Origin: Escherichia coli
Lineage (GTDB): Bacteria; Pseudomonadota; Gammaproteobacteria; Enterobacterales; Enterobacteriaceae
Reading direction: 5' to 3' (one strand)
NCBI RefSeq assembly: GCF_046105845.1
Contig: NZ_CP151004.1
Length of the DNA stretch: 64,000 bases
In this document: positions 35,533 through 53,172 of the stretch, piece after piece
Layout of the letters: each line of letters starts with the position of its first letter
How positions within the stretch are numbered: position 1 is the stretch's first letter
The notes under the pieces: model-generated
Told to the model about the DNA's origin: nothing
Seen by the model: the letters and a program-made list of their open reading frames with translations, nothing else
Database searches by the model: none
Position numbers and translations under genes: made by a program

Positions 35533-36009
35533 GTATTCTTATTTCCCTTCTTTTAGATCTGGTTTGTTAAATGCCAGCTTGCAGATTCATCGTTCCATCG
35601 CCAGTAATATATTCAAGGGGAAATTGCTATTTTTCTTAAAATATTAAGCATAACCCTTATTTTATAGCGAATATTCCTAAAGACATAAATGAATGAAAAA
35701 GAGTTTTAATAGAGTTCTTTTTTAGCAATTAATGCTATTCTTTGTTAAATATGATGATGGTAATTTTCTTATTGAAAGAAACATTTTTCTTATTAAGCAA
35801 CAATAACTCATGGTTCATTTTTAAATAAAATAAGAACTATGCAATTTTTAATCTATCAATTCGAAAGTATTAGCAAATGAGCCAAATTGACACCTTCCCA
35901 CCTCCAACCAACACTCAATACAGACCTCTGACAACTTAATAAGTTTCATTTTTAACGTCTGATGACTCATCTCTTTCGTGGCTGTATTGTTTGTATATGG
36001 AGCGTTTAT

Positions 36010-39000
36010 ATGAATAGAATCTATCGCGTGATATGGAATTGCACCCTACAGGTATTTCAGGCCTGCTCGGAATTAACTCGCAGGGTAGGTAAAACATCAA
36101 CGGTTAATTTGCGTAAATCCTCTGGACTGACAACGAAATTCAGTAGATTGACGCTGGGTGTTTTGCTGGCACTAAGCGGTTCAGCGTCTGGTGCGAGTCT
36201 GGAAGTTGATAATGATCAGATTATCAATATTGATACTGATGTTGCTTATGATGCCTACCTGGTTGGGTGGTATGGCACTGGAGTGCTTAATATTTTGGCT
36301 GGCGGTAATGCCTCCTTAACCACTATTACTACCAGCGTCATTGGTGGTAATGAGAACTCGAAGGGCACCGTTAATGTTTTGGGTGGCACCTGGCGATTGT
36401 ATGATAGCGGAAATAATGCAAGGCCTTTAAATGTGGGCCAATCCGGAACGGGGATGCTGAATATTAAACAGAAGGGGCACGTTGACGGAGGCTATTTAAG
36501 ATTAGGTACTCAAGCTGTAGGCGTCGGGATGGTTAATGTTGAGGGAGAGGACTCGGTTCTGACGACCGAATTATTCGAAATAGGGAGTTACGGTACAGGC
36601 TCATTAAATATTACGGATAAGGGTTACGTCACGAGTTCAATCGTCGCCATTGTAGGATATCAGGCGAACAGCACTGGTAAGGTTGTCGTTGAAAAGGGTG
36701 GCGAGTGGCTAATAAAAAATAATGATTCCTCAATTGAATTTCAAATTGGTAATCAAGGAACTGGGGAGGCGACTATTCGCGAGGGTGGACTGATTACGGC
36801 TGAAAATACGATTATCGGTGGCAATGCCACCGGTATCGGAACCCTGAATGTGCAGGATCAAGACTCTGTCATCACGGTACGCAGAGTCTATAATGGATAT
36901 TTCGGTAATGGCACAGTCAATATTTCCAATAATGGACTGATTAATAATAAAGAATATTCATTGGTGGGCGTTCAGGACGGGTCCCACGGTGTCGTCAACG
37001 TGACCAATAAAGGGCATTGGAATTTCCTCGGAACGGGCGAAGCTTTCCGCTATATCTATATCGGTGATGCTGGCGACGGTGAACTTAATGTCTCTAGTGA
37101 AGGCAAAGTAGATTCGGGAATTATCACTGCGGGGATGAAAGAAACAGGCACAGGCAACATTACTATTAAGGATAAGAACTCCATTATCACTAATCTCGGA
37201 ACTAATCTTGGTTATGACGGCCACGGCGAAATGAATATCAGTAATGAGGGGCTTGTTATCAGCAACGGAGGAAGCTCACTCGGTTATGGAGAAACCGGCG
37301 TCGGGAAGGTTAGCATCACCACGGGGGGGATGTGGGAGGTCAATAAGAATGTCTATACCACCATTGGTGTTGCGGGCGTCGGAAACCTCAATATCAGCGA
37401 TGGCGGTAAGTTCGTATCGCAAAATATTACTTTTTTGGGCGATAAAGCAAGCGGTATCGGCACACTGAACCTGATGGATGCGACATCATCGTTCGATACT
37501 GTAGGTATCAATGTCGGTAATTTTGGTAGCGGCATCGTAAATGTCAGTAATGGTGCCACCCTTAATTCAACGGGCTATGGATTTATCGGAGGAAATGCCT
37601 CCGGTAAGGGGATAGTTAATATTTCAACGGATAGTCTCTGGAATTTAAAAACGTCATCTACTAACGCCCAATTGTTACAGGTCGGTGTATTAGGCACGGG
37701 TGAACTGAATATTAGCACCGGAGGTATAGTTAAAGCGCGTGATACACAAATAGCTCTCAATGACAAAAGTAAGGGCGACGTGCGGGTGGATGGGCAGAAC
37801 TCTCTTCTTGAAACATTCAATATGAACGTAGGGACGACTGGCACAGGTACGTTAACCCTGACGAATAACGGTACGCTGAATGTCGAAGGTGGAGAAGTTT
37901 ACTTAGGTGTTTTTGCGCCTGCTGTAGGAACGCTAAACATTGGTGCTGCTCACGGTGAGGCGGCGGCAGATGCCGGATTTATCACCAATGCGACGAAAGT
38001 GGAGTTTGGTCTTGGCGAAGGCGTTTTTGTCTTTAATCATACCAATAACAGTGATGCCGGCTACCAGGTCGATATGCTGATTACGGGTGACGATAAAGAC
38101 GGAAAAGTGATGCATGATGCAGGCCATACGGTGTTCAATGCAGGGAATACTTATAGCGGTAAAACGTTGGTCAATGGCGGCCTCCTGACCATTGCGTCAC
38201 ATACGGCAGATGGGGTAACGGGCATGGGTTCGAGTGAAGTAACCATTGCAAACCCCGGTACGCTCGACATTCTCGCATCAACGAACAGTGCAGGAGATTA
38301 CACGCTGACCAATGCGCTCAAAGGCGATGGCTTGATGCGAGTGCAGCTGTCATCCTCCGACAAAATGTTTGGCTTTACCCATGCAACAGGAACTGAATTC
38401 GCCGGTGTTGCCCAACTGAAAGACAGTACCTTCACACTGGAACGCGACAACACCGCTGCGCTTACTCACGCGATGCTTCAGTCTGACAGTGAAAATACCA
38501 CATCGGTAAAAGTGGGAGAGCAATCCATTGGTGGACTAGCCATGAATGGCGGTACGCTCACTTTCGATACGGATATACCTGCTGCGACGCTCGCGGAGGG
38601 ATATATCAGCGTCGATACGCTGGTTGTCGGCGCGGGTGACTACACCTGGAAAGGCCGTAACTATCAGGTAAACGGGACGGGCGACGTGCTTATCGACGTG
38701 CCTAAACCGTGGAATGATCCCATGGCGAATAACCCTCTGACGACGCTCAATTTGCTGGAACACGATGATAGTCATGTCGGCGTTCAACTGGTGAAGGCGC
38801 AAACGGTTATTGGGTCGGGTGGCTCATTAACGTTACGTGATTTACAGGGCGACGAGGTGGAAGCGGACAAAACGTTACATATTGCACAAAACGGGACAGT
38901 GGTCGCCGAGGGTGATTATGGATTCCGCCTCACGACCGCTCCTGGTGATGGTTTGTATGTTAACTATGGGCTGAAAGCGCTGAACATCCATGGTGGGCAA

Positions 39001-41430
39001 AAGCTGACGTTAGCCGAACATGGCGGAGCCTATGGCGCAACGGCCGATATGTCGGCAAAAATCGGTGGTGAAGGGGATCTGGCAATCAATACGGTGCGAC
39101 AGGTTTCGCTTTCTAACGGTCAGAACGACTATCAGGGGGCAACCTACGTTCAGATGGGGACATTACGTACCGATGCGGATGGCGCTCTGGGCAATACTCG
39201 GGAACTGAACATCAGCAACGCGGCCATCGTCGATCTTAATGGATCGGAGCAGACGGTAGAGACATTCACCGGGCTGATGGGTTCGACTATTTTGTTCAAA
39301 GAAGGTTCGCTGACGGTGAATAAAGGTGGGATCAGTCAGGGCGAACTGACAGGTGGCGGAAACCTGAATGTTACAGGGGGAACACTGGCTATCGAGGGGC
39401 TTAATGCACGCTACAATGCGTTAACCAGCATTAGCCCAAATGCGGAAGTCAGCCTCGACAATACGCAGGGGTTAGGCAGAGGAAATATTGCCAATGACGG
39501 TCTGTTAACGCTAAAAAACGTGACCGGCAAACTGCGCAATAGCATAAGCGGTAAAGGTATCGTGAGCGCAACCGCCAGCACAGACGTAGAGCTGGATGGC
39601 GATAATAGCCGCTTTGTGGGGCAATTCAACATCGATGCAGGCAGCGCGCTCAGCGTCAACGAGCAGAAAAACCTGGGTGATGCTTCCGTTATCAATAATG
39701 GCCTGCTCACCATCGCCACTGAGCGTAGCTGGGCGATGACGCACAGTATCACCGGTAGCGGCGATGTGACAAAACTGGGGACCGGGATCCTGACTCTTAA
39801 CAACGATTCCGCGGCGTATCAGGGTACGACGGATATCGTGGGTGGTGAAATTGCTTTCGGTTCCGACTCTGCCATTAATATGGCAAGTCAGCACATTAAT
39901 ATCCATAACAGCGGTGTGATGTCGGGAAATGTCACCACTGCAGGTGATGTGAACGTTATGCCAGGGGGGACACTGCGTGTCGCTAAAACCACTGTCGGCG
40001 GTAACCTGGAGAATGGTGGCACGGTTCAAATGAACAGCGAAGGGGGGAAACCGGGGAATGTACTGACCGTTAACGGCAACTATACCGGAAACAATGGCCT
40101 GATGACGTTCAACGCGACGCTGGGTGGCGATAATTCGCCCACGGATAAAATGAACGTGAAAGGCGATACCCAAGGGAATACTCGCGTTCGGGTTGATAAC
40201 ATTGGCGGCGTCGGTGCACAAACGGTCAACGGTATTGAACTCATTGAGGTTGGCGGTAATTCTGCAGGTAAATTCGCGCTGACCACCGGAACTGTCGAAG
40301 CTGGGGCTTACGTCTACACGCTGGCTAAAGGGAAGGGGAATGACGAGAAAAACTGGTATCTGACCAGTAAATGGGACGGCGTAACGCCAGCGGATACACC
40401 CGATCCCATCAATAATCCCCCTGTTGTGGATCCGGAAGGCCCATCAGTTTATCGCCCGGAGGCCGGAAGCTATATCAGCAACATTGCCGCAGCCAACTCG
40501 CTGTTTAGCCATCGCTTACACGACCGTCTGGGTGAGCCGCAGTATACAGATTCACTGCATTCTCAGGGTTCGGCAAGCAGTATGTGGATGCGTCATGTCG
40601 GGGGGCACGAACGTTTCAGGACCGGTGACGGCCAGCTAAATATTCAGGCTAACCGCTATGTATTGCAGCTAGGAGGCGATTTGGCGCAGTGGAGTAGCAA
40701 CGCGCAGGATCGCTGGCATCTCGGCATCATGGCAGGCTATGCCAATCAGCACAGTAATACTCAGAGTAATCATGTGGGTTATAAATCGGATGGGCGCATC
40801 AGCGGTTACAGCGCAGGACTGTACGCGACCTGGTATCAGAACGATGCGAATAAGACCGGCGCTTATGTTGACAGCTGGGCGCTGTATAACTGGTTTGATA
40901 ACAGCGTCAGTTCCGATAACCGTTCTGCTGACGACTATGATTCTCGCGGTGTGACGGCCTCTGTTGAGGGGGGGTATACCTTTGAAGCGGGAACATTTAG
41001 CGGCAGCGAAGGGACGCTGAATACCTGGTACGTCCAGCCACAGGTACAAATCACCTGGATGGGTGTGAAAGATTCTGACCATACCCGGAAAGACGGAACA
41101 CGCATTGAAACGGAAGGCGACGGAAACGTGCAAACGCGACTTGGGGTGAAAACCTACCTGAACAGCCATCACCAGCGTGACGATGGTAAACAGCGTGAGT
41201 TCCAGCCTTACATTGAAGCGAACTGGATCAACAACAGCAAAGTCTACGCCGTGAAGATGAATGGTCAAACCGTAAGCCGTGATGGTGCGCGTAATCTCGG
41301 TGAAGTACGTACCGGGGTTGAGGCGAAAGTAAATAACAACCTTAGCCTGTGGGGGAATGTCGGTGTGCAACTAGGTGATAAAGGCTATAGCGATACTCAG
41401 GGCATGCTGGGAGTGAAATATATCTGGTAA
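36010..41430 (+). CDS. yneO: AIDA-I/Ag43-type autotransporter adhesin with extended signal peptide region, degenerate repetitive passenger and C-terminal beta-barrel translocator; intact
   Basis: ORF 35962..41430. The likely start is the ESPR motif MNRIYRVIWNCTLQVFQACSELTRRV at 36010, followed by a classical signal peptide (LTLGVLLALSGSASGAS). The passenger carries repeated G-x-GTG-x-LNI-type units; the barrel ends ...GMLGVKYIW. Positional orthologue of the K-12 yneO/ydeK pseudogene between lsrK and hipB (from memory). Confidence 0.88.
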   Translation: MNRIYRVIWNCTLQVFQACSELTRRVGKTSTVNLRKSSGLTTKFSRLTLGVLLALSGSASGASLEVDNDQIINIDTDVAYDAYLVGWYGTGVLNILAGGNASLTTITTSVIGGNENSKGTVNVLGGTWRLYDSGNNARPLNVGQSGTGMLNIKQKGHVDGGYLRLGTQAVGVGMVNVEGEDSVLTTELFEIGSYGTGSLNITDKGYVTSSIVAIVGYQANSTGKVVVEKGGEWLIKNNDSSIEFQIGNQGTGEATIREGGLITAENTIIGGNATGIGTLNVQDQDSVITVRRVYNGYFGNGTVNISNNGLINNKEYSLVGVQDGSHGVVNVTNKGHWNFLGTGEAFRYIYIGDAGDGELNVSSEGKVDSGIITAGMKETGTGNITIKDKNSIITNLGTNLGYDGHGEMNISNEGLVISNGGSSLGYGETGVGKVSITTGGMWEVNKNVYTTIGVAGVGNLNISDGGKFVSQNITFLGDKASGIGTLNLMDATSSFDTVGINVGNFGSGIVNVSNGATLNSTGYGFIGGNASGKGIVNISTDSLWNLKTSSTNAQLLQVGVLGTGELNISTGGIVKARDTQIALNDKSKGDVRVDGQNSLLETFNMNVGTTGTGTLTLTNNGTLNVEGGEVYLGVFAPAVGTLNIGAAHGEAAADAGFITNATKVEFGLGEGVFVFNHTNNSDAGYQVDMLITGDDKDGKVMHDAGHTVFNAGNTYSGKTLVNGGLLTIASHTADGVTGMGSSEVTIANPGTLDILASTNSAGDYTLTNALKGDGLMRVQLSSSDKMFGFTHATGTEFAGVAQLKDSTFTLERDNTAALTHAMLQSDSENTTSVKVGEQSIGGLAMNGGTLTFDTDIPAATLAEGYISVDTLVVGAGDYTWKGRNYQVNGTGDVLIDVPKPWNDPMANNPLTTLNLLEHDDSHVGVQLVKAQTVIGSGGSLTLRDLQGDEVEADKTLHIAQNGTVVAEGDYGFRLTTAPGDGLYVNYGLKALNIHGGQKLTLAEHGGAYGATADMSAKIGGEGDLAINTVRQVSLSNGQNDYQGATYVQMGTLRTDADGALGNTRELNISNAAIVDLNGSEQTVETFTGLMGSTILFKEGSLTVNKGGISQGELTGGGNLNVTGGTLAIEGLNARYNALTSISPNAEVSLDNTQGLGRGNIANDGLLTLKNVTGKLRNSISGKGIVSATASTDVELDGDNSRFVGQFNIDAGSALSVNEQKNLGDASVINNGLLTIATERSWAMTHSITGSGDVTKLGTGILTLNNDSAAYQGTTDIVGGEIAFGSDSAINMASQHINIHNSGVMSGNVTTAGDVNVMPGGTLRVAKTTVGGNLENGGTVQMNSEGGKPGNVLTVNGNYTGNNGLMTFNATLGGDNSPTDKMNVKGDTQGNTRVRVDNIGGVGAQTVNGIELIEVGGNSAGKFALTTGTVEAGAYVYTLAKGKGNDEKNWYLTSKWDGVTPADTPDPINNPPVVDPEGPSVYRPEAGSYISNIAAANSLFSHRLHDRLGEPQYTDSLHSQGSASSMWMRHVGGHERFRTGDGQLNIQANRYVLQLGGDLAQWSSNAQDRWHLGIMAGYANQHSNTQSNHVGYKSDGRISGYSAGLYATWYQNDANKTGAYVDSWALYNWFDNSVSSDNRSADDYDSRGVTASVEGGYTFEAGTFSGSEGTLNTWYVQPQVQITWMGVKDSDHTRKDGTRIETEGDGNVQTRLGVKTYLNSHHQRDDGKQREFQPYIEANWINNSKVYAVKMNGQTVSRDGARNLGEVRTGVEAKVNNNLSLWGNVGVQLGDKGYSDTQGMLGVKYIW

Positions 41431-41437
41431 ACCTTAT

Positions 41438-41467
41438 AAGCCGCATGTCGAAGATGGCATGCGGCTT
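41438..41467 (+). terminator. 10-bp perfect stem hairpin (aagccgcatg / catgcggctt) immediately after the autotransporter stop
   Basis: Inverted repeat read from sequence; weak T-tract. Confidence 0.45.
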
Positions 41468-41506
41468 AATATTGCCGACTTCAAACGACTTTTAAATCCT
41501 CCTTTT

Positions 41507-41620: not shown

Positions 41621-41641
41621 AATATGCTGTGGACGTATGAC

Positions 41642-41908
41642 ATGATGAGCTTTCAGAAGATCTATAGCCCAACGCAATTAGCGAATGCAATGAAACTGGT
41701 TCGTCAGCAAAATGGCTGGACGCAGAGCGAGCTGGCGAAAAAAATCGGTATTAAGCAGGCGACAATTTCCAATTTCGAAAACAACCCTGACAATACCACG
41801 CTCACGACATTTTTTAAGATTTTACAGTCGCTTGAACTCTCAATGACGCTATGCGACACGAAAAATGCCTCGCCAGAATCAACAGAACAGCAAGATCTGG
41901 AGTGGTAA
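41642..41908 (+). CDS. hipB: Antitoxin HipB (Cro/C1-type HTH)
   Basis: ORF 41624..41908; conserved start MMSFQKIYSPTQLANAMKLVRQQNGWTQSELAKKIG at 41642 (88 aa). Confidence 0.93.
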   Translation: MMSFQKIYSPTQLANAMKLVRQQNGWTQSELAKKIGIKQATISNFENNPDNTTLTTFFKILQSLELSMTLCDTKNASPESTEQQDLEW

Positions 41909-43230
41909 TGCCTAAACTTGTCACTTGGATGAACAACCAGCGGGTAGGCGAGTTAACGAAGTTAGCCAATGGCGCGCACACCTTTAAGTATGCACCGGAG
42001 TGGTTAGCTAACCGTTATGCCAGACCGTTGTCACTTTCGCTGCCATTGCAGAGGGGGAATATCACCTCTGATGCCGTATTTAACTTCTTCGATAACCTGT
42101 TACCCGATAGCCCGATTGTACGTGACCGGATCGTTAAACGTTATCATGCCAAATCCAGACAACCGTTTGATTTATTGTCAGAAATAGGGCGAGACAGCGT
42201 TGGTGCCGTGACGTTAATACCCGAAGACGAAACCGTAACGCATCCGATAATGGCATGGGAAAAGCTTACTGAAGCCAGACTTGAAGAAGTATTAACGGCT
42301 TATAAAGCAGATATCCCTCTGGGCATGATTAGAGAAGAAAATGACTTTCGCATCTCGGTTGCTGGCGCGCAGGAGAAGACAGCGCTGCTCAGAATAGGCA
42401 ATGACTGGTGCATTCCGAAAGGAATAACGCCGACGACGCACATCATTAAATTACCGATTGGCGAAATCAGGCAGCCCAATGCGACGCTCGATCTCAGCCA
42501 AAGCGTTGATAATGAGTATTACTGTCTGCTGCTGGCGAAAGAACTTGGGTTGAATGTTCCGGACGCAGAAATCATTAAAGCGGGAAGGGTGCGCGCGTTA
42601 GCGGTCGAACGTTTTGACAGGCGTTGGAATGCTGAGCGAACGGTTTTACTTCGCTTGCCACAGGAGGATATGTGTCAGACATTCGGTTTACCTTTATCGG
42701 TGAAATATGAATCAGATGGAGGCCCAGGCATCGCGCGGATCATGGCTTTTTTGATGGGGTCCAGCGAGGCGCTGAAAGATCGCTATGATTTTATGAAGTT
42801 TCAGGTGTTCCAGTGGTTGATTGGCGCAACGGATGGCCATGCAAAAAACTTCTCCGTATTTATTCAGGCTGGCGGCAGTTATCGACTCACGCCATTTTAC
42901 GACATCATTTCAGCATTTCCGGTATTGGGTGGCGCAGGAATACACATCAGCGATCTCAAACTGGCAATGGGGCTTAACGCATCCAAAGGCAAAAAAACGG
43001 CAATCGATAAAATTTATCCGCGACATTTTCTGGCGACAGCAAAGGTGCTGAAATTTCCGGAAGTGCAGATGCATGAAATCCTGAGTGACTTTGCCAGAAT
43101 GATTCCGGCAGCACTGGATAACGTGAAGACTTCATTACCGACAGATTTTCCGGAGAACGTGGTGACGGCAGTTGAAACAAATGTGTTGAGGTTGCACCGT
43201 CGGTTAAGCCGAGAATACGGTATTAAGTAA
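41908..43230 (+). CDS. hipA: Serine/threonine kinase toxin HipA
   Basis: ORF 41851..43230; conserved start MPKLVTWMNNQRVGELTKLANG at 41908 (440 aa), overlapping the hipB stop by 1 nt. Gly22 is wild-type; the autophosphorylation-site context RISVAGAQEKTAL is present. Confidence 0.93.
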   Translation: MPKLVTWMNNQRVGELTKLANGAHTFKYAPEWLANRYARPLSLSLPLQRGNITSDAVFNFFDNLLPDSPIVRDRIVKRYHAKSRQPFDLLSEIGRDSVGAVTLIPEDETVTHPIMAWEKLTEARLEEVLTAYKADIPLGMIREENDFRISVAGAQEKTALLRIGNDWCIPKGITPTTHIIKLPIGEIRQPNATLDLSQSVDNEYYCLLLAKELGLNVPDAEIIKAGRVRALAVERFDRRWNAERTVLLRLPQEDMCQTFGLPLSVKYESDGGPGIARIMAFLMGSSEALKDRYDFMKFQVFQWLIGATDGHAKNFSVFIQAGGSYRLTPFYDIISAFPVLGGAGIHISDLKLAMGLNASKGKKTAIDKIYPRHFLATAKVLKFPEVQMHEILSDFARMIPAALDNVKTSLPTDFPENVVTAVETNVLRLHRRLSREYGIK

Positions 43231-43510
43231 GATATGGGGTTTGGCTGTTGTTAATGAGCAGGACAATCATGACCGCCAACGACTGGATTCTCCCTTGGTT
43301 TATGTTGGTGCGCATAATGTATATTATGTTAAATTGAATTTGAGTGATACGAAGCGATTTTCCGGTCGTCGTTATTACTTCAGGGTTCCAGAACATAAAG
43401 CCTCTCCTCTTTCATAATTGGCCTGTGCATACCGGATATAGGCTGGCTGGTATGCAGGTTTGCCGTTTGCCGCATCTTCCCTGCGTTGAAGAGTCAGGCT
43501 GGCAAACCGC

Positions 43511-43765
43511 GTGCAAATGAACACCCCCTCTTTCCATCAACACTTCAGACAGCTTGCGGGAATGAGTCCACTCCGGTATCAGAAATGGCTACGCCTCAAT
43601 GAAGCCAGGCGACTGATGCTGAATGAACATTACGATGTCACCACTGCAGCCTATGCTGTCGGTTACGAAAGCTTATCCCATTTCAGTCGGGAATATTCGC
43701 GGATGTTTGGAGAGTCACCTAAGAGAGATATTACCGGGTTAAGAAAGTCTGTCGGTCAGCTTTAA
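43511..43765 (+). pseudogene. yneL: AraC-family regulator remnant (C-terminal HTH domain only)
   Basis: 84-aa ORF HFRQLAGMSPLRYQKWLRLNEARRLMLNEHYDVTTAAYAVGYESLSHFSREYSRMFGESP is the second AraC HTH; no N-terminal effector domain ORF upstream. Confidence 0.55.
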
Positions 43766-44198
43766 TAAACCCTGCACTTATCTGTTTAGAGCAATTCCGT
43801 GTTAGTTACACCAGTCAAACATTAACCATAGCTAATGTTTTATAGCCATATAAACCATTGGCCGCTCTTGACCTTTCCTGACACTTCCCTTGTTCGCAAT
43901 AATATTCTGTTTAGTCGCTGTTTATAAATAACATGCATAATGAAATCGTAATGTTATTTAGCGACATAAAATGTCTTTGCAAATACTCTCTACAACAAGT
44001 GCTGCAATAAACTTGTTGTGATTAGGTGTCCTTGTAATTTAAAGATATTATCGTTCTTCGTGAAATGTAATAACCCTGGAAACTATATTCTCAGGGCAAT
44101 ATCCCATCAAGAATGATTCTTGTTTTATAAGCAATAACAGAATTACTTAATTGTTAACTTTCTTTATTCAGCTACTTAAATATAAATTTTGGAGAATT

Positions 44199-44762
44199 AT
44201 GAAACTCAAACATGTCGGTATGATTGTCGTTTCTGTGTTGGCGATGTCGTCTGCTGCGGTAAGCGCAGCCGAGGGTGATGAATCAGTAACGACCACTGTT
44301 AATGGCGGTGTTATTCATTTTAAAGGTGAAGTGGTAAATGCCGCTTGTGCGATTGATTCAGAATCAATGAACCAAACGGTTGAGCTGGGTCAGGTCCGTT
44401 CTTCTCGTCTGGCTAAAGCGGGTGACCTCAGCTCCGCCGTTGGCTTCAATATCAAGCTGAATGATTGTGATACCAATGTTTCCAGTAATGCAGCTGTTGC
44501 ATTCCTGGGTACTACTGTCACCAGTAATGACGATACCTTAGCGCTGCAGAGTTCAGCGGCAGGCTCTGCCCAAAATGTCGGTATTCAAATTTTGGACCGT
44601 ACGGGGGAGGTATTAATACTTGATGGTGCCACTTTTAGCGCTAAAACCGACTTGATTGATGGCACGAATATACTGCCATTCCAGGCTCGTTATATTGCTC
44701 TCGGGCAGTCAGTAGCTGGTACTGCAAACGCTGATGCGACCTTCAAAGTTCAATATCTATAA
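44199..44762 (+). CDS. F9-type fimbrial major subunit (FimA-like pilin)
   Basis: ORF 44151..44762; start taken at [23 protein letters not shown] (44199) after GGAG; pilin-like with a conserved Cys pair. Absent from K-12 (from memory). Confidence 0.85.
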
Positions 44763-44803
44763 TTCAATCTTAAGGTGGCTATACGTCATCTGAAATTGAA
44801 ACA

Positions 44804-44832
44804 GGGTGTGTGTGGCATGGCTACGCACACCC
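44804..44832 (+). other. Intercistronic stem-loop (gggtgtg...cgcacaccc) downstream of the fimbrial major subunit gene
   Basis: Imperfect inverted repeat read from sequence; no T-tract. Such hairpins typically set major-subunit to assembly-protein stoichiometry in chaperone-usher operons. Confidence 0.4.
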
Positions 44833-45113
44833 GAGCAATTCACCAATGTGAATCTCATTATTAATGAGGAGTGGTTTGTATTTGGAGCACTATGAAAAAT
44901 CACATAATATCTAAACGTTCAATAAACAACAGTAGTTAAACTTACTGTTATTTAAAATATTTACTTTGTAGCAAGGTTTTCCTGTTAAAAGAGAACCAAC
45001 ATTTATTACAAACGCATTAAGTCTGGAAACCCAGCGAGTCGCCGATGTATTAGCAACATTTACCGATTGTCTGATGTAACGGTTTCCCCGCTTATCCTCT
45101 TAACACATGGAGA

Positions 45114-45833
45114 ATGCATCAGATGCAAACTACGCGTACCCCCTACTCTGTTTCCTTTATGGCGACAGTGTTACTTTTATTGGTCTTTGCTTGCCATAGC
45201 ACCATTGCCAACGCAGCTGTCGCACTGGGTGCGACGCGGGTAATTTATCCGGCAAACCAGAAACAGGTTTTATTGCCTGTCACGAATAATGATCCTGCCA
45301 GTGTCTATCTCATTCAGTCATGGATAGAAAATGCAGGTGACCAAAAAGACACCCAGTTTGTCATTACCCCACCGCTTTTTTCCATGCAAGGTAAAAAAGA
45401 GAATACGCTGCGGATAATCAACGCCACTAATCATCAGTTACCAGGCGACCGTGAAAGCCTGTTCTGGGTGAATGTTAAAGCTATTCCTGCTATGGAAAAA
45501 GACCAGAAGAATGAGAATACATTACAGCTGGCAATTATTAGCCGCATAAAAATGTTTTATCGCCCCACGAACCTGGCAATGGCACCTGAAGAAGCGCCTG
45601 CAATGCTTCGGTTTCGTCGCAGCGGTAGCAAACTCACTCTTATTAATCCAACGCCCTACTTCATTACCGTAACAAATATGAAAGCAGGAAATAGCAATCT
45701 CCCAAACACCATGGTGCCGCCAAAAGGTGAAGTATCGGTGGATATCCCGCATGCTGCAACCGGGGATATCAGTTTTCAGACGATCAATGATTACGGTGCA
45801 TTAACTCCGCGTATTAAGGCAACCATGCAGTAA
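45114..45833 (+). CDS. Periplasmic fimbrial chaperone (PapD/FimC family)
   Basis: 239-aa ORF; mature N-terminus AVALGATRVIYP is typical of FimC-like chaperones. The start may be a downstream ATG. Confidence 0.85.
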   Translation: MHQMQTTRTPYSVSFMATVLLLLVFACHSTIANAAVALGATRVIYPANQKQVLLPVTNNDPASVYLIQSWIENAGDQKDTQFVITPPLFSMQGKKENTLRIINATNHQLPGDRESLFWVNVKAIPAMEKDQKNENTLQLAIISRIKMFYRPTNLAMAPEEAPAMLRFRRSGSKLTLINPTPYFITVTNMKAGNSNLPNTMVPPKGEVSVDIPHAATGDISFQTINDYGALTPRIKATMQ

Positions 45834-45874
45834 GCCAGTGACCTAATTAATAATAAACTCAATCGGAATTAAAA

Positions 45875-48526
45875 ATGACAGCCTTTCGTGCCGCATTTAA
45901 GGCATATCGTATGCATCAGGTGTTACTACTGCCTCGCTTTGCACGGCTTACCATTGCCCTTGGCTTAGCAACTGCGGTATTTCCCGTTGACGCAGAGTAT
46001 TATTTTAATCCACGGTTTTTAAGCAATGATCTTGCTGAATCTGTCGATTTATCCGCCTTTACTAAGGGACGCGAGGCACCACCTGGTACATATCGGGTCG
46101 ACATTTATTTGAACGACGAATTTATGACTAGTCGGGATATTACTTTTATTGCAGATGATAATAACGCAGATCTCATCCCATGCCTGAGTACAGATCTTCT
46201 TGTCAGTCTTGGCATAAAAAAATCAGCGTTATTAGACAATAAAGAACATTCGGCAGAAAAACATGTGCCGGACAACAGCACATGCACACCACTTCAGGAT
46301 CGTTTGGCTGACGCATCATCTGAGTTTGATGTTGGTCAGCAACATCTGTCACTCTCCGTTCCGCAAATTTATGTTGGCAGAATGGCTCGCGGCTATGTTT
46401 CTCCGGATCTGTGGGAAGAAGGAATAAATGCTGGGCTACTAAACTATAGTTTTAATGGTAATTCTATTAATAATCATAGTAACCATAATGCAGGAAAATC
46501 CAACTATGCATATTTGAATTTACAGAGTGGCATCAACATTGGTAGTTGGCGACTGCGTGATAACTCAACGTGGAGTTATAACAGTGGGAGTAGCAATTCA
46601 TCTGACAGCAATAAATGGCAGCATATCAATACGTCGGCTGAACGTGACATTATTCCCTTACGCTCACGGTTAACGGTGGGTGATAGTTATACCGATGGCG
46701 ATATTTTTGATAGTGTGAACTTTCGTGGCCTCAAAATAAATTCAACAGAAGCGATGTTGCCCGATAGCCAACATGGTTTCGCTCCGGTGATTCATGGTAT
46801 TGCCCGTGGCACAGCACAAGTGAGTGTAAAACAGAATGGATACGATGTTTATCAGACTACTGTTCCACCCGGCCCTTTTACTATTGATGATATCAACTCT
46901 GCGGCCAATGGTGGTGATCTGCAAGTAACCATAAAAGAGGCAGACGGCAGTATTCAGACATTATATGTTCCTTATTCGTCTGTTCCGGTTCTCCAACGTG
47001 CTGGATATACGCGTTATGCGCTTGCCATGGGGGAATATCGTAGTGGAAATAACCTGCAAAGCTCCCCCAAGTTCATACAAGGTAGCTTGATGCATGGACT
47101 GGAAGGAAACTGGACACCTTATGGCGGAATGCAAATTGCAGAAGATTATCAGGCCTTCAACCTTGGTATTGGTAAAGATTTAGGACTTTTTGGTGCCTTT
47201 TCTTTCGATATCACGCAGGCCAATACGACACTTGCAGATGGCACCCGTCACAGCGGGCAATCGATTAAATCCGTCTACAGCAAATCCTTCTACCAGACGG
47301 GAACCAATATCCAGGTCGCAGGATATCGCTATTCTACGCAAGGTTTTTATAACTTATCCGACAGTGCCTACAGTCGAATGAGTGGTTACACCGTCAAGCC
47401 TCCTACCGGAGACAGCAATGAGCAGACACAATTTATTGATTATTTTAATCTGTTCTACAGTAAGCGTGGTCAGGAACAAATAAGCATCTCTCAGCAGCTT
47501 GGAAATTACGGTACGACATTTTTCAGTGCCAGTCGCCAAAGTTACTGGAACACGTCACGCAGCGACCAGCAAATATCATTTGGATTAAATGTGCCGTTTG
47601 GCGATATTACAACTTCGCTGAATTACAGCTATTCCAATAATATATGGCAAAACGATCGGGATCATTTACTTGCTTTTACGCTTAATGTTCCCTTCAGTCA
47701 TTGGATGCGTACAGACAGTCAGTCGGCATTTCGTAATTCAAACGCCAGTTACAGTATGTCAAACGATTTGAAAGGCGGCATGACCAATCTATCAGGGGTT
47801 TATGGCACTCTGCTGCCGGATAATAACCTGAATTATAGCGTTCAGGTAGGTAACACCCACGGAGGTAATACATCGTCTGCCACCAGTGGTTACAGTTCTC
47901 TTAATTATCGTGGAGCTTACGGTAATACTAATGTCGGTTACAGTCGGAGTGGGGACAGCAGCCAGATTTATTACGGAATGAGTGGTGGGATTATTGCTCA
48001 TGCTGATGGCATCACCTTTGGTCAGCCGCTGGGCGACACAATGGTTCTGGTTAAGGCTCCTGGCGCTGATAATGTCAAAATAGAGAACCAGACCGGAATT
48101 CATACCGACTGGCGTGGCTATGCCATATTACCATTTGCGACAGAATATAGAGAAAATCGTGTCGCTCTTAACGCGAATTCCCTTGCAGATAATGTTGAAC
48201 TGGATGAAACCGTGGTCACTGTCATCCCAACTCACGGTGCTATTGCCAGAGCAACATTTAATGCACAAATCGGCGGGAAAGTATTAATGACGTTGAAGTA
48301 CGGTAATAAGAGCGTTCCATTCGGTGCAATTGTCACTCACGGAGAGAATAAAAATGGCAGCATTGTCGCGGAAAACGGTCAGGTTTATCTGACTGGACTT
48401 CCACGGTCAGGGAAATTACAGGTTTCATGGGGCAATGATAAAAACTCAAACTGTATAGTCGATTACAAGCTTCCTGAAGTCACTCCTGGAACCTTACTGA
48501 ACCAGCAGACAGCAATCTGTCGCTAA
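45875..48526 (+). CDS. ydeT: Outer-membrane fimbrial usher (FimD/PapC family), full length
   Basis: 883-aa ORF; likely start at MHQVLLLPRFARLTIALGLATAVF (45911). Full length here, whereas K-12 ydeT is a truncated pseudogene (from memory). Confidence 0.85.
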   Translation: MTAFRAAFKAYRMHQVLLLPRFARLTIALGLATAVFPVDAEYYFNPRFLSNDLAESVDLSAFTKGREAPPGTYRVDIYLNDEFMTSRDITFIADDNNADLIPCLSTDLLVSLGIKKSALLDNKEHSAEKHVPDNSTCTPLQDRLADASSEFDVGQQHLSLSVPQIYVGRMARGYVSPDLWEEGINAGLLNYSFNGNSINNHSNHNAGKSNYAYLNLQSGINIGSWRLRDNSTWSYNSGSSNSSDSNKWQHINTSAERDIIPLRSRLTVGDSYTDGDIFDSVNFRGLKINSTEAMLPDSQHGFAPVIHGIARGTAQVSVKQNGYDVYQTTVPPGPFTIDDINSAANGGDLQVTIKEADGSIQTLYVPYSSVPVLQRAGYTRYALAMGEYRSGNNLQSSPKFIQGSLMHGLEGNWTPYGGMQIAEDYQAFNLGIGKDLGLFGAFSFDITQANTTLADGTRHSGQSIKSVYSKSFYQTGTNIQVAGYRYSTQGFYNLSDSAYSRMSGYTVKPPTGDSNEQTQFIDYFNLFYSKRGQEQISISQQLGNYGTTFFSASRQSYWNTSRSDQQISFGLNVPFGDITTSLNYSYSNNIWQNDRDHLLAFTLNVPFSHWMRTDSQSAFRNSNASYSMSNDLKGGMTNLSGVYGTLLPDNNLNYSVQVGNTHGGNTSSATSGYSSLNYRGAYGNTNVGYSRSGDSSQIYYGMSGGIIAHADGITFGQPLGDTMVLVKAPGADNVKIENQTGIHTDWRGYAILPFATEYRENRVALNANSLADNVELDETVVTVIPTHGAIARATFNAQIGGKVLMTLKYGNKSVPFGAIVTHGENKNGSIVAENGQVYLTGLPRSGKLQVSWGNDKNSNCIVDYKLPEVTPGTLLNQQTAICR

Positions 48527-48539
48527 GGAACAATAGATT

Positions 48540-49070
48540 ATGAAATACAATAACGTTATTTTCCTCGGTTTATGTCTGGGGTTAACCACCTATTCTGCTT
48601 TATCCGCAGATAGCGTTATTAAAATTAGCGGGCGCGTCCTCGATTATGGCTGCACAGTCTCATCGGATTCGCTTAATTTTACCGTAGATCTCCAAAAAAA
48701 CAGTGCCAGACAATTTCCAACGACCGGTAGCACAAGTCCAGCCGTCCCTTTTCAGATTACGTTAAGTGAATGCAGCAAAGGGACAACGGGGGTTCGAGTT
48801 GCATTTAACGGGATTGAGGATGCAGAAAATAATACTCTGTTGAAACTGGATGAAGGAAGCAATACAGCCTCCGGTTTGGGTATAGAAATACTGGACGGAA
48901 ATATGCGTCCGGTGAAATTGAATGACCTTCATGCCGGGATGCAGTGGATCCCACTGGTACCAGAACAGAACAATATTTTGCCTTACTCCGCTCGTCTGAA
49001 GTCAACTCAGAAGTCCGTCAATCCGGGACTGGTGAGGGCTTCGGCAACCTTTACCCTTGAATTTCAATAA
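48540..49070 (+). CDS. ydeS: Fimbrial minor subunit
   Basis: 176 aa with signal peptide; length matches YdeS. Confidence 0.85.
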   Translation: MKYNNVIFLGLCLGLTTYSALSADSVIKISGRVLDYGCTVSSDSLNFTVDLQKNSARQFPTTGSTSPAVPFQITLSECSKGTTGVRVAFNGIEDAENNTLLKLDEGSNTASGLGIEILDGNMRPVKLNDLHAGMQWIPLVPEQNNILPYSARLKSTQKSVNPGLVRASATFTLEFQ

Positions 49071-49082
49071 TCAGAGTCAGAT

Positions 49083-49586
49083 ATGAAAAGACTTCACAAG
49101 AGGTTCCTGTTAGCTACGTTTTGCGCGTTATTCACAGCAACTCTCCAGGCCGCCGATGTCACTATCACTGTTAATGGTCGGGTAGTCGCTAAACCCTGCA
49201 CTATTCAAACCAAAGAAGCTAACGTTAATCTCGGGGATCTTTATACACGCAATCTGCAACAACCTGGCTCTGCATCTGGCTGGCACAATATTACTTTGTC
49301 ATTAACCGATTGTCCGGTTGAAACAAGTGCAGTGACGGCAATCGTGACAGGTTCAACTGACAATACGGGTTATTACAAAAATGAAGGTAGTGCCGAAAAT
49401 ATTCAGATAGAGCTGAGGGACGACCAGGATGCTGCGTTAAAAAATGGCGATAGCAAAACGGTTATTGTTGATGAGATCACTCGTAATGCACAGTTTCCAC
49501 TTAAGGCAAGAGCTATCACGGTGAATGGAAACGCAAGCCAGGGAACGATCGAGGCTCTAATCAATGTGATCTACACCTGGCAATAA
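49083..49586 (+). CDS. ydeR: Fimbrial minor subunit
   Basis: 167 aa with signal peptide; length matches YdeR. Confidence 0.85.
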   Translation: MKRLHKRFLLATFCALFTATLQAADVTITVNGRVVAKPCTIQTKEANVNLGDLYTRNLQQPGSASGWHNITLSLTDCPVETSAVTAIVTGSTDNTGYYKNEGSAENIQIELRDDQDAALKNGDSKTVIVDEITRNAQFPLKARAITVNGNASQGTIEALINVIYTWQ

Positions 49587-49645
49587 CGTCGATTCGATTT
49601 TCTTAGCCTCCTTTTTAAATCAATTTTTTAACCTTAGGATATATC

Positions 49646-50560
49646 ATGGGTAAAACAATAAGTATGAAGCTTCTGTTCGGTATTTATCTTCTATTAATGG
49701 CAGGCAAAGTTTTTGCCTTCAGTTGTAATGTCGATGGCGGGTCAAGTATTGGAGCAGGTACAACCTCTGTTTATGTTAATCTCGACCCTGTAATACAACC
49801 GGGCCAGAATCTGGTTGTAGACTTGTCTCAGCACATAAGTTGCTGGAATGATTACGGCGGCTGGTACGACACTGATCATATAAACCTGGTACAAGGCTCA
49901 GCTTTCGCAGGCTCTCTACAGTCATATAAAGGATCGCTGTACTGGAATAATGTGACCTACCCCTTCCCGTTGACGACAAATACTAATGTATTAGATATTG
50001 GTGATAAGACACCGATGCCATTACCGTTAAAACTCTATATTACCCCAGTCGGTGCGGCCGGTGGAGTTGTCATAAAAGCCGGGGAAGTTATTGCCCGTAT
50101 TCATATGTATAAAATTGCCACGTTAGGAAGCGGAAATCCGCGTAATTTTACGTGGAATATTATTTCAAATAACAGTGTTGTTATGCCAACAGGCGGCTGC
50201 ACCGTTGATAGTCGTAATGTCAACGTGAATCTCCCGGACTTTCCTGGAAGCGCAGAAATACCCCTTGGCGTATATTGCTCAAGTGAACAAAAGCTCTCAT
50301 TTTATCTTTCGGGTGCTACCACTGACAGTGCCAGACAAGTGTTTGCTAACACAGCACCAGATGCAACAAAAGCATCGGGAGTGGGTGTCTCTCTGATGCG
50401 TAATGGAAAAATACTGGCTACGGGAGAAAACGTCTCCCTGGGGACAGTAAATAAAAGCAAAGTACCTCTGGGTTTAAGCGCAACCTATGGACAAACAGGA
50501 AACAAGGTTGCAGCCGGAACCGTCCAGTCAGTCATTGGTGTCACTTTTATCTATGAATAA
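49646..50560 (+). CDS. ydeQ: Fimbrial tip adhesin (FimH-like two-domain)
   Basis: 304 aa with signal peptide; length matches YdeQ. Confidence 0.85.
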
Positions 50561-50632
50561 TTGTGATTTTGACATTGGTCTATGCGCTCCATTCACGAAA
50601 ATTGCGCGGATATTTATTTTGTGAAGGCTATT

Positions 50633-50650
50633 ATCCTACATCTGTAAGAA
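50633..50650 (+). promoter_or_regulatory. EvgA box (ATCCTACA-tc-TGTAAGAA) upstream of ydeP
   Basis: Matches the EvgA 18-bp inverted-repeat consensus TTCYTACA-N2-TGTARGAA with one mismatch; ydeP is a known EvgA-activated acid-resistance gene. Confidence 0.6.
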
Positions 50651-50892
50651 AATCCGCGCACAATTGAAGCCAGAGTCTTATTTTTTATATTGAAAAATAT
50701 GTTAATTTAAACACTATGAGAGATGATGCTTAATTTATCGTATTTAATCTTTTGTTTAACGATAATAGATTAAAATAGAAAGAGAGTAGTCCCCTACTCT
50801 TATATATCCATGTTGACGATAATCCCTTTGTATATACTGTGCATCATCGCTATTACAAATCCTAATAATTCATTTCCACACAGGATAAGCAG

Positions 50893-53172
50893 ATGAAGAA
50901 AAAAATTGAATCCTACCAGGGAGCTGCCGGTGGTTGGGGTGCTGTTAAATCCGTAGCGAATGCAGTACGTAAGCAGATGGATATACGCCAGGATGTTATT
51001 GCCATGTTTGACATGAATAAGCCAGAGGGCTTTGACTGTCCGGGTTGTGCATGGCCAGATCCTAAGCACAGTGCGTCATTCGACATTTGTGAAAACGGCG
51101 CAAAAGCAATCGCCTGGGAAGTCACGGATAAGCAGGTAAACGCCTCTTTCTTTGCTGAGAATACGGTTCAATCATTACTTACCTGGGGAGACCACGAGCT
51201 CGAGGCTGCGGGGCGTCTCACCCAGCCTTTGAAATATGATGCCGTCAGCGACTGTTACAAGCCATTAAGCTGGCAACAAGCTTTCGACGAAATTGGCGAA
51301 CGCCTTCAAAGCTATAGTGATCCCAATCAGGTTGAATTCTATACTTCGGGCCGCACTTCCAATGAAGCTGCCTTTCTTTATCAGCTTTTTGCCCGTGAAT
51401 ACGGGAGCAATAACTTCCCCGACTGCTCCAACATGTGCCATGAACCGACCAGTGTGGGTTTGGCAGCGAGTATCGGTGTAGGTAAAGGGACCGTGTTGCT
51501 GGAAGACTTTGAGAAATGCGATTTAGTCATTTGCATTGGGCATAACCCTGGTACAAACCACCCTCGCATGTTGACTTCGTTGCGCGCTTTAGTGAAACGG
51601 GGAGCGAAAATGATCGCCATCAATCCTCTACAGGAACGTGGCCTGGAGCGATTTACCGCACCGCAAAACCCGTTTGAAATGCTGACGAACTCTGAGACTC
51701 AGTTGGCCAGTGCCTACTATAACGTGCGCATTGGTGGTGATATGGCGTTGCTCAAGGGGATGATGCGCCTGTTAATTGAGCGCGATGATGCTGCAAGCGC
51801 CGCAGGTCGGCCCTCATTGCTGGATGACGAATTTATTCAAACGCATACCGTCGGCTTTGACGAGCTACGCCGTGACGTGCTCAATTCCGAGTGGAAAGAT
51901 ATCGAACGTATTTCTGGATTAAGTCAGACTCAAATCGCCGAACTGGCTGATGCATATGCCGCTGCCGAACGCACCATTATCTGTTACGGAATGGGGATCA
52001 CTCAGCACGAACATGGTACCCAGAATGTACAGCAACTGGTCAATCTGCTGTTGATGAAAGGTAACATTGGCAAGCCTGGTGCGGGTATCTGCCCACTACG
52101 AGGTCACTCTAATGTACAGGGCGACCGAACCGTCGGTATCACCGAGAAACCGTCTGCAGAGTTTCTGGCTCGCCTGGGTGAGCGCTATGGTTTCACCCCA
52201 CCTCATGCACCTGGACATGCTGCAATTGCCAGCATGCAAGCAATATGTACGGGGCAGGCTCGAGCATTGATCTGCATGGGGGGCAACTTTGCACTGGCAA
52301 TGCCAGATCGGGAAGCGAGCGCTGTACCGTTAACGCAATTAGATTTGGCGGTACACGTAGCCACTAAGCTTAACCGCTCTCATCTGCTGACCGCACGGCA
52401 TAGCTATATTCTGCCGGTTCTTGGGCGTAGCGAGATTGACATGCAAAAAAGCGGTGCGCAGGCGGTAACCGTTGAGGATTCAATGTCGATGATTCATGCC
52501 TCGCGTGGCGTGTTAAAACCCGCCGGTGTAATGCTGAAATCAGAGTGTGCAGTGGTCGCGGGAATCGCGCAGGCAGCACTACCCCAGAGCGTGGTAGCCT
52601 GGGAGTATCTGGTGGAAGATTATGATCGCATTCGCAATGACATTGAAGCTGTGCTGCCAGAGTTCGCCGACTATAACCAGCGCATCCGTCATCCCGGTGG
52701 TTTTCACCTGATAAATGCAGCTGCTGAAAGGCGCTGGATGACGCCGTCAGGTAAGGCTAATTTCATTACCAGTAAAGGGCTGTTAGAAGATCCCTCTTCA
52801 GCGTTTAACAGTAAGCTAGTCATGGCGACAGTACGCAGTCACGATCAGTACAACACGACGATTTATGGTATGGATGATCGCTATCGAGGGGTATTCGGTC
52901 AACGAGATGTGGTCTTTATGAGTGCTAAACAAGCTAAAATTTGCCGTGTAAAAAACGGCGAAAGAGTTAATCTTATTGCGCTTACGCCAGACGGTAAGCG
53001 AAGCTCACGCCGCATGGATAGATTAAAAGTGGTCATTTACCCTATGGCTGACCGCTCACTGGTGACCTATTTTCCAGAATCGAATCACATGCTAACACTT
53101 GATAACCACGATCCATTGAGTGGCATTCCTGGCTATAAAAGTATTCCGGTTGAATTAGAACCATCAAATTAA
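50893..53172 (+). CDS. ydeP: Molybdopterin-dependent oxidoreductase (formate dehydrogenase-like), acid-resistance protein
   Basis: 759 aa; matches YdeP. Confidence 0.93.

Follow-up and report, generated by a model that had tools for sequence, protein, structure and literature searches.

What is the six-gene fimbrial locus at positions 43766-50560 of a 64,000-nucleotide stretch of Escherichia coli DNA (hereafter the window), and what could be the role of the hairpin that lies between its pilin and chaperone genes? The locus is the complete, six-gene version of the chromosomal F9 (Fml, Yde) chaperone-usher fimbrial operon of E. coli. We are confident of the joint explanation for locus and hairpin, namely that an intact F9 operon carries a pilin 3' hairpin which would act on the sense RNA and thereby permit differential expression. 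The operon, its promoter, its H-NS control, its receptor and the K-12 deletion are already published and in most E. coli the operon is intact; the discovery value of the locus as such is small, F9/Fml fimbriae being already well described. The pilin 3'-UTR hairpin and the long conserved spacer behind it might account for the stoichiometry of the subunits, or might be the source of a second small RNA from a fim-type operon. If a role of the hairpin or spacer is shown, this would be of moderate interest for fimbrial regulation and for FmlH-targeted anti-adhesives.

A complete F9 operon between hipBA and ydeP

The original prediction, made from the letters alone, described six tandem intact genes of F9 type, and both parts of this description stand. 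The six collinear genes (Table 1) encode a pilin, a chaperone, an usher of 883 aa, a pair of minor subunits and an adhesin with two domains. All six reading frames are uninterrupted by stop codons and align without gaps to their counterparts of equal length in E. coli MLI106K3 as annotated by RefSeq. The pilin (187/187 identical to WP_001296758.1) and the adhesin are 100% identical to their MLI106K3 counterparts, the usher is identical at 874 of 883 positions without gaps, and the chaperone matches its equally long RefSeq counterpart at 231 of 236. The assignment to F9 rests on an FmlH-identical lectin domain, the presence of the published promoter and the position of the operon between hipBA and ydeP, a setting shared with K-12. 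This location and the gene organisation agree with published descriptions of F9, and comparison with the known F9/Fml loci (c1931-c1936 in CFT073, Z2200-Z2206 in O157:H7 and the ydeQRST remnant in K-12) reveals no difference of substance in gene order, lengths, location or promoter.

The individual proteins resemble those of type 1 fimbriae (fimAICDFGH), with which F9 shares the gamma-type chaperone-usher architecture. All three pilin-like subunits score above the curated cut-offs of the NCBIfam equivalogs, the major pilin for FimA (174 bits, cut-off 140), YdeS for FimF (239 bits, cut-off 200) and YdeR for FimG (255 bits, cut-off 220); YdeS and YdeR are also nearly identical to their K-12 versions (174/176 and 166/167). 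The listed pilin reading frame begins at an upstream TTG at 44151. For the chaperone the best NCBIfam match is FimC (residues 15-234; 258 bits, below the curated cut-off of 327), and its identity to E. coli FimC is 60%. An alternative chaperone start exists at ATG 45114; ATG 45123 is preferred because of a GGAG Shine-Dalgarno sequence at 45109-45112. The usher spans positions 6-877 of the 877-position NCBIfam usher model, its best match, with 985 bits, slightly below the 995-bit curated cut-off. The adhesin aligns with FimH over its full length (E = 6e-81), and its residues 25-184 are identical (160/160) to the FmlH lectin domain in crystal structures (6AOW and ten others, including 5LNE), an adhesin whose sugar specificity differs from that of the type 1 adhesin (Wurpel 2014, PMC3966885). 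Since pilin and adhesin are identical in sequence to characterised proteins, the locus very likely makes functional fimbriae: chaperone and usher would polymerise many pilins beneath a short FimF/FimG-like tip bearing FmlH, an adhesin that binds Gal-beta-1,3-linked glycans.

The statement in the original prediction that K-12 keeps only part of the operon proved accurate. A blastn comparison of the window with the K-12 locus shows a deletion that begins 73 nt inside the 5' leader and reaches as far as usher codon 476, leaving K-12 with ydeS, ydeR and ydeQ and a 5'-truncated usher pseudogene, ydeT. An intact operon is nevertheless nothing special, since a 7.5-kb query was covered to at least 80% in 3563 of 5426 complete E. 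coli genomes (~66%); the literature figure for the intact F9 operon is 60% of strains. The best DNA identity to any of the 5426 genomes was 98.9%, and differences from other genomes are distributed evenly over the locus. Directly upstream, outside the operon, lies a regulator fragment, yneL, which NCBIfam models of AraC/RhaS-type regulators match with their C-terminal HTH part only; in RefSeq it stands as an incomplete pseudogene of the helix-turn-helix kind, and B2 strains lack it.

Table 1. Features of the F9 locus and its surroundings (positions in the window)
Feature	Position	Strand	Basis or detail
hipB	41624-41908		neighbour
hipA	end at 43230		neighbour
yneL pseudogene, C-terminal AraC-family regulator fragment	43511-43765	+	NCBIfam; flank, outside operon
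f9 sigma-70 promoter	43912-43948	+	-35 TAGTCG 43912-43917; 18-nt spacer; -10 CATAAT 43936-43941; TSS G 43948
5' untranslated leader, AT-rich, 251 nt	43948-44198	+	29% GC; within H-NS-bound f9 promoter region
Segment missing in E. coli K-12, 3279 bp	44021-47299		blastn of window against K-12 locus
Major pilin FmlA (F9 major subunit; c1936/Z2200 homologue), 187 aa	44199-44762	+	NCBIfam FimA equivalog
Untranslated pilin-chaperone gap	44763-45122	+	37.5% GC
RNA hairpin in pilin 3' UTR	44804-44832	+	GGGUGUGUGUGGC-AUG-GCUACGCACACCC; 41 nt past stop codon
Periplasmic chaperone, FimC-like, 236 aa	45123-45833	+	NCBIfam FimC
Outer-membrane usher, full length, 883 aa	45875-48526	+	NCBIfam usher model
Minor subunit YdeS, FimF-like adaptor, 176 aa	48540-49070	+	NCBIfam FimF equivalog
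Minor subunit YdeR, FimG-like, 167 aa	49083-49586	+	NCBIfam FimG equivalog
Tip adhesin YdeQ = FmlH, 304 aa	49646-50560	+	N-terminal lectin and C-terminal pilin domain
ydeP	50893-53172		neighbour

Promoter, leader and the question of an invertible switch

The AT-rich upstream region, estimated at about 430 bp in the original prediction, measures 433 bp (43766-44198) with 32% GC. It contains an f9 promoter unchanged from that of CFT073, where 5'-RACE placed the transcription start 251 nt upstream of the pilin ATG; in the same study H-NS gel-shifted a 251-bp f9 promoter-region fragment and H-NS motifs were predicted at -111 to +89 (Wurpel 2014, PMC3966885). Poor F9 expression under laboratory conditions has been described there and elsewhere. 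Transcription begins at the sigma-70 promoter listed in Table 1; H-NS bound to the AT-rich f9 region represses it, so that expression occurs mainly at low temperature, and a single transcript spans the genes for pilin, chaperone, usher, the two adaptors and FmlH. A clean terminator after ydeQ was not found, the region holding only a 9-bp long-range repeat whose fold is not significant (z = -1.1).

Type 1 fimbriae possess the recombinases FimB and FimE and an invertible element, and the upstream region of F9 had been described as showing no obvious switch of this kind. A search for inverted repeats and recombinases yielded one candidate, with 15-nt arms at 43626-43640 and 43941-43955 that agree at 14 of 15 positions in the window, lie 300 nt apart, a spacing like that of fimS, and place the mapped -35, -10 and transcription start at the right-hand arm. 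That the f9 promoter sits on an invertible segment bounded by this repeat has nevertheless practically no chance of being correct. The junction predicted after inversion was built and searched for in the 5426 genomes, and it was inverted in none of the 5114 E. coli genomes that matched the test junction. Furthermore, the arms agree at only 13 of 15 positions in most strains; the left arm, situated within the yneL pseudogene, does not occur in B2 strains or in 2013C-4282, which nonetheless have the operon; and the neighbours of the operon (hipBA, the yneL fragment and ydeP) include no recombinase gene. With neither both orientations in natural populations nor conserved flanking repeats nor an adjacent tyrosine recombinase, a fimS-type switch was rejected as far as genome data go.

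Structure and conservation of the hairpin and its spacer

The hairpin lies exactly where the original prediction had placed it, with 13-nt arms and a 3-nt loop, and the gap that holds it, said to be about 350 bp long, amounts to 351 nt up to ATG 45114 or 360 nt up to the annotated ATG. The stem consists of 13 pairs, two of which are G.U, and because of these two pairs the hairpin folds 7.8 kcal/mol better on the sense strand (-22.4 against -14.6 kcal/mol antisense). Within a context of 61 nt the fold reaches -26.6 kcal/mol (z = -3.8), and one of 200 shuffles was equally good. A scan of all 35-nt windows, on either strand, across the 64 kb found just one stronger locus and about eight within 3 kcal/mol. 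Several other strong hairpins (2965, 5019, 41435) are found just past the ends of listed reading frames.

The gap is present at full length in 3571 genomes, and its hairpin is better conserved than the rest: 1 of 29 columns is variable in the hairpin against 87 of 318 elsewhere (p = 0.003), and the longest invariant run of the gap falls mostly within it. The hairpin is nearly invariant across phylogroups, also in a lineage whose gap is only 81.5% identical; the alignment across phylogroups contains no compensatory change in the stem, so that conservation here cannot tell RNA structure from a constraint on the primary sequence. The sole stem variant, a G to U change in 2013C-4282, puts a U.U mismatch in place of a G.U pair, and the stem then reaches only -18.6 kcal/mol. 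No alignable sequence is shared between the F9 gap and the spacer of a Citrobacter F9-like locus. Since the gap occurs in one copy per genome, a REP/BIME repeat was rejected.

Beyond the hairpin lies a conserved untranslated spacer of about 280 nt. Rfam searches over 43000-51200 (E <= 1) returned no match in the gap; the only hit, an OxyS-like one, lay on the minus strand within ydeQ and was set aside as chance, with 22 bits where the gathering score is 75. There is no plus-strand match to a promoter consensus in 44763-45113, and the 281-nt spacer (C 51 against G 47) lacks the C-rich, G-poor character of a Rho-dependent signal. A small protein was likewise rejected, as other strains do not keep the reading frame of the 15-codon mini-ORF at 44892.

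Possible roles of the hairpin

The hairpin is real and conserved; by analogy with known operons it is most likely an ordinary element of the kind through which fimbrial operons obtain a surplus of pilin over assembly proteins, and its most likely function would be that of a 3' stabiliser or a partial stop for the pilin mRNA. It would act on the sense transcript as an RNA element and most probably block 3'-to-5' exonucleases, with or without stopping some polymerases. A pilin-only mRNA could then outlast or outnumber the full-length message, and pilin would be made in large excess over the chaperone, the usher and the tip proteins, an outcome of the malE/malF and papA type. In being stable and directly downstream of the pilin gene, the structure resembles a protective 3' hairpin; such hairpins and the papA precedent have been summarised previously (Dar and Sorek 2018). 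A precedent for the whole class comes from related FimA-like pilin genes, 48 of 54 of which have a hairpin 20-30 nt past the stop codon. The arrangement is that of malE-malF, papA and cfaAB, in which, as in F9, a stable stem-loop follows the gene for the most abundant product and precedes genes in lower demand. The single-copy F9 hairpin differs from a REP element, and differential decay at F9 is proposed by analogy.

A Rho-independent attenuator that halts most polymerases after the pilin gene, a possibility raised in the original prediction, would agree with a GC-rich 13-bp stem directly 3' of the gene whose product is needed most, and comparably strong hairpins occur in the window, several of them just past listed reading-frame ends. 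However, the stem is followed immediately by GAGCAAUUCACC and not by a run of U, and a terminator scan did not call the hairpin. Of the two hallmarks of an intrinsic terminator the locus shows the GC-rich stem-loop and lacks the U-rich tract (GAGCAATTCACC after the stem), and because of this missing tract termination would be inefficient. In addition, the pilin, chaperone, ydeR and ydeQ mRNAs are co-regulated in an APEC pst mutant, and substantial read-through of the hairpin is therefore to be expected. We regard attenuation in this sense as unlikely. Still less can be said for the gap being a decayed fimI-like gene and the hairpin its functionless leftover, which we judge quite improbable. 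Type 1 operons do place fimI between fimA and fimC, and a sequence closely resembling the pilin ribosome-binding site and ATG recurs in the gap (44881-44897 against 44188-44204, 88%). Yet tblastn of the gap with the F9 pilin, YdeS, YdeR, E. coli FimA and FimI and Klebsiella homologues gave a best E of 0.08, the mini-ORF is frame-shifted between strains, the hairpin is much better conserved than the remaining gap, and a gap without fimI is found in the Citrobacter F9-like locus too.

Alternatively, the pilin 3' UTR including the hairpin might give rise to a stable trans-acting sRNA, the F9 counterpart of FimR2, which is generated by RNase E from the fimA-fimI spacer. Both RNAs would come from the 3' UTR of a major pilin with a stem-loop, the F9 hairpin is strongly conserved, and the A/U-rich stretch upstream of it fits the RN|WUU RNase E motif (AA|AUU at 44794-44798) described by Dar and Sorek (2018). 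However, the FimR2-type hairpin has 5-7 bp and presents a GGA in its loop for CsrA binding, whereas the F9 hairpin has 13 bp and an AUG loop, and no GGA is found in 44763-44842. Furthermore, no Rfam family matches, F9 is poorly expressed in laboratory conditions, and neither an experimental trace of such an RNA nor a match to the hairpin sequence turned up in the papers that could be searched. A FimR2-like sRNA thus seems rather unlikely, and the stabiliser or partial stop is preferred.

The comparison with type 1 fimbriae also points to differences in the surroundings of the hairpin: F9 has no fimI, no fimB/fimE recombinases and no invertible element, and its spacer is 350 nt long against a short one in type 1. 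We speculate, as an improbable scenario, that an ancestral CsrA-binding GGA-loop hairpin was replaced in the E. coli F9 lineage by the longer conserved hairpin, behind which the conserved 280-nt spacer lies. The element might then be a regulatory RNA in its own right: an sRNA derived from the 3' UTR, or a module that works in cis in processing or thermosensing. If this were true, the new element might free F9 from the CsrA circuit and have a part in its expression at low temperature. Of the 54 related FimA-like pilin loci, the 48 with a hairpin 20-30 nt past the stop codon keep the GGA loop, which F9 does not have.

The F9 locus and its remnant in K-12

An ORF listing of 41.5-53 kb gives six same-strand genes (Table). 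The pilin (187 aa) and the two small subunits (176 and 167 aa) score above the curated cut-offs of the NCBIfam FimA, FimF and FimG models; the chaperone (236 aa) has FimC as its best NCBIfam match (258 bits against a cut-off of 327), and the usher (883 aa) matches the NCBIfam usher model end to end (985 bits, cut-off 995). An alternative in-frame ATG of the chaperone at 45114 lies too near the GGAG at 45109. Residues 25-184 of the two-domain adhesin (304 aa) are identical at 160 of 160 positions to the crystallised lectin domain of FmlH (6AOW and related entries), and the whole protein aligns with FimH at E = 6e-81. The operon is preceded by hipB, hipA and the yneL pseudogene, an AraC-type regulator reduced to an 84-aa C-terminal fragment, and it is followed by ydeP; this is the published hipBA/ydeP setting of F9 (Wurpel et al., 2014, PMC3966885). 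It is a common operon in E. coli and has been characterised thoroughly.

Coordinates of features in the window
Feature	Position	Remark
Only locus folding more strongly than the pilin 3' UTR hairpin	2965-2999	
Uninterrupted ORF (+)	35962-41430	1822 aa
Strong hairpin following this ORF	41435-41469	
Inverted repeat around f9 promoter, arms	43626-43640 / 43941-43955	14/15 positions, 300 nt between arms
f9 -35	43912-43917	TAGTCG
f9 -10	43936-43941	CATAAT
f9 transcription start	43948	G
Segment deleted in K-12	44021-47299	3279 bp
Pilin ribosome-binding site and ATG	44188-44204	TTTGGAGAATTATGAAA
Six operon genes	44199-50560	
Longest invariant spacer run	44799-44824	
Hairpin	44804-44832	GGGTGTGTGTGGC-ATG-GCTACGCACACCC
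Copy of pilin ribosome-binding site and ATG	44881-44897	88% identity
15-codon ORF	44892-44939	
Annotated chaperone start	45123	
ydeQ-ydeP inverted repeat, arms	50602-50611 / 50651-50660	TTGCGCGGAT / ATCCGCGCAA; 9-10 bp, 40-nt loop

The six proteins were compared with the RefSeq annotation of MLI106K3, which at 98.9% DNA identity is the closest complete genome. Each equals its counterpart in length and is free of gaps and internal stops; for pilin and adhesin the identity is complete, while the usher shares 874 of 883 residues. The original prediction of six tandem intact genes with a full-length usher is thereby upheld: neither frameshifts nor an identical intact operon in K-12 were found. A 7.5-kb query matched 5396 of 5426 complete E. 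coli genomes, with coverage of at least 80% in 3563 of the 5426 (66%), which agrees with the 60% of intact operons in a 2014 survey, where every phylogroup A strain was disrupted (PMC3966885).

The K-12 annotation holds ydeT, a 5'-truncated usher pseudogene, followed by ydeS, ydeR and ydeQ, and local blastn delimits a deletion whose ends lie 73 nt past the transcription start and at usher codon 476; the truncation stated earlier is thereby borne out. At the junction (position 3464 of the K-12 locus L002), codon 476 directly follows an f9 promoter that is complete and has kept the first 73 nt of its leader. This promoter could therefore still drive transcription of the remnant ydeT-ydeSRQ.

Within 43400-50900, the best identity to any of the 5426 complete genomes is 98.9%, just five records reach 99%, and mismatches to the best match are spread evenly without clusters. 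The source strain therefore lacks a very close relative among these genomes, at any rate for the F9 locus.

The f9 promoter and the search for an invertible switch

From the yneL stop to the pilin ATG, the sequence measures 433 bp at 32% GC. In CFT073, the f9 promoter was mapped by 5'-RACE, with an 18-nt spacer between -35 and -10 and a start site 251 nt ahead of the pilin ATG. The same study showed that the f9 promoter region is bound by H-NS, with repression of its expression at 37 °C (PMC3966885). The CFT073 promoter is found base for base in the window.

A repeat search returned a sole inverted repeat resembling that of fimS, the invertible promoter switch of type 1 fimbriae; it brackets the f9 promoter and its right arm overlaps the mapped transcription start. 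The post-inversion junction was constructed and searched against all complete E. coli genomes, and the inverted arrangement occurred in 0 of the 5114 genomes matching parts of it. Moreover, the repeat matches at only 13/15 positions in most strains, B2 strains and 2013C-4282 have the operon but lack the left arm, which lies within the yneL pseudogene, and no recombinase gene lies near the operon. A fimS-like switch is rejected on these grounds. Both statements made earlier on this region, an AT-rich stretch of ~430 bp and no fim-like switch, thus hold.

The hairpin in the pilin 3' UTR

The predicted hairpin in a gap of ~350 bp was borne out: it lies 41 nt 3' of the pilin stop, in a gap of 351-360 nt. 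The RNA pairs at 13 positions, two of which are G.U, and folds at -22.4 kcal/mol alone and at -26.6 kcal/mol in a 61-nt context (z = -3.8). Its reverse complement reaches -14.6 kcal/mol, because the G.U pairs turn into A-C mismatches, and this asymmetry points to a function in the sense transcript. When every 35-nt window on both strands of the 64 kb was scanned, a single locus proved stronger and about eight came within 3 kcal/mol; several strong loci (2965, 5019, 41435) lie just beyond the ends of listed ORFs.

An alignment of eight E. coli took in O157, B2 strains and a lineage whose gap is only 81.5% identical. In it, variable columns number 1 of 29 in the hairpin against 87 of 318 in the remaining spacer (Fisher p = 0.003), and the longest invariant spacer run falls mostly inside the hairpin; conserved blocks also occur elsewhere in the spacer. 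The single variant, in 2013C-4282, is a G to U change, by which a G.U pair becomes U.U and the stability of the stem drops to -18.6 kcal/mol. No compensatory stem changes occur among the eight, so conservation alone is no proof of RNA structure. Altogether, the hairpin is real and under selection. It is single copy and hence not a REP element, matches no Rfam family and was found in no paper of the literature searched; it belongs to a well-known element class.

The sequence after the stem, GAGCAAUUCACC, has no U-tract and a terminator scan did not call the hairpin, which makes efficient intrinsic termination at this site unlikely. Read-through is implied by microarray data from an APEC pst mutant, in which pilin, chaperone, ydeR and ydeQ change together. 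The best-supported model is 3' protection, the classical explanation for fimbrial operons and for others as well. We infer that an endonuclease would cleave the distal part of the operon mRNA and that the stable 3' stem-loop would then stop 3' exonucleases before they reach the highly translated cistron upstream of it; some transcripts may also terminate there. Precedents are the protective stem-loops of malE-malF, papA and cfaAB (Dar and Sorek, 2018, PMC5927463), to which the F9 hairpin is likened.

The same hairpin, together with an F9 pilin 99% identical to that of the window, occurs on a 25-kb contig (JARKOR010000214.1) of a Saccharibacteria metagenome-assembled genome, 'Candidatus Nanosynbacter sp.', a bin that has almost certainly been contaminated with E. 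coli DNA.

Related pilin loci and the remaining spacers

FimR2 is a 35-nt sRNA made by RNase E from the fimA 3' UTR; CsrA binds to the GGA in its loop (Raad et al., 2022, PMC9723502). Scanning the F9 pilin against species-representative genomes yielded 58 loci, 54 of them usable for the hairpin count. A GGA-loop hairpin of at least 5 bp lies 20-30 nt past the pilin stop in 48 of the 54, where shuffles predict 9.8, and looks like a family-wide FimR2/CsrA-type 3' UTR element. This short GC hairpin, typically CGGGCC-AGGAN-GGCCCG, lies within 20-45 nt past the stops of FimA-like pilin genes among loci L004-L059, from Klebsiella, Enterobacter, Citrobacter, Raoultella, Kluyvera, Serratia, Pantoea and other genera. 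This hairpin is absent from F9 at 44763-44842; in contrast to its relatives, F9 keeps a TTAAGG stretch at the site of their first GGA motif and has a longer AUG-loop hairpin further downstream instead. The difference from the family-typical FimR2-type hairpin is the only unusual trait of the F9 hairpin.

Outside Escherichia, Citrobacter sp. JGM124 comes closest: its pilin is 76% and its chaperone 74% identical to those of F9 (F9 chaperone and FimC: 60%). Its locus (NZ_JAERJD010000004.1 3001-4738) resembles F9 in lacking fimI and in a pilin-chaperone spacer of ~440 nt, but keeps the GGA-loop hairpin, and its spacer cannot be aligned with that of E. coli. It is an F9-like arrangement outside Escherichia, its adhesin falling beyond the DNA compared; the 2014 literature held F9 unique to E. 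coli/Shigella. E. coli 2013C-4282 (NZ_CP027579.1 1013451-1016442) carries a divergent F9 allele with a spacer 81.5% identical, flanked upstream by IS481-transposase and alpha/beta-hydrolase fragments, not hipBA/yneL; it lies in an 80-90% identity band that holds 19 records.

In the pilin-chaperone gap, no coding remnant was detected (tblastn E >= 0.08), nor a consensus promoter on the + strand, nor a C-rich, G-poor character. The pilin ribosome-binding site and ATG recur there and head a 15-codon ORF, which is probably non-coding, as an extra A shifts its frame in MLI106K3 and WP5. The AT-rich ydeQ-ydeP spacer holds a GC-rich inverted repeat with a T-run ~20 nt after it; it does not fold significantly (z = -1.1), and a clean terminator of the operon was not identified after ydeQ.

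Ahead of the operon, the K-12 counterpart of the 1822-aa ORF is listed as an 'ECSE_1600 family autotransporter' pseudogene with a frameshift, and the window strain thus seems to keep this autotransporter intact too.
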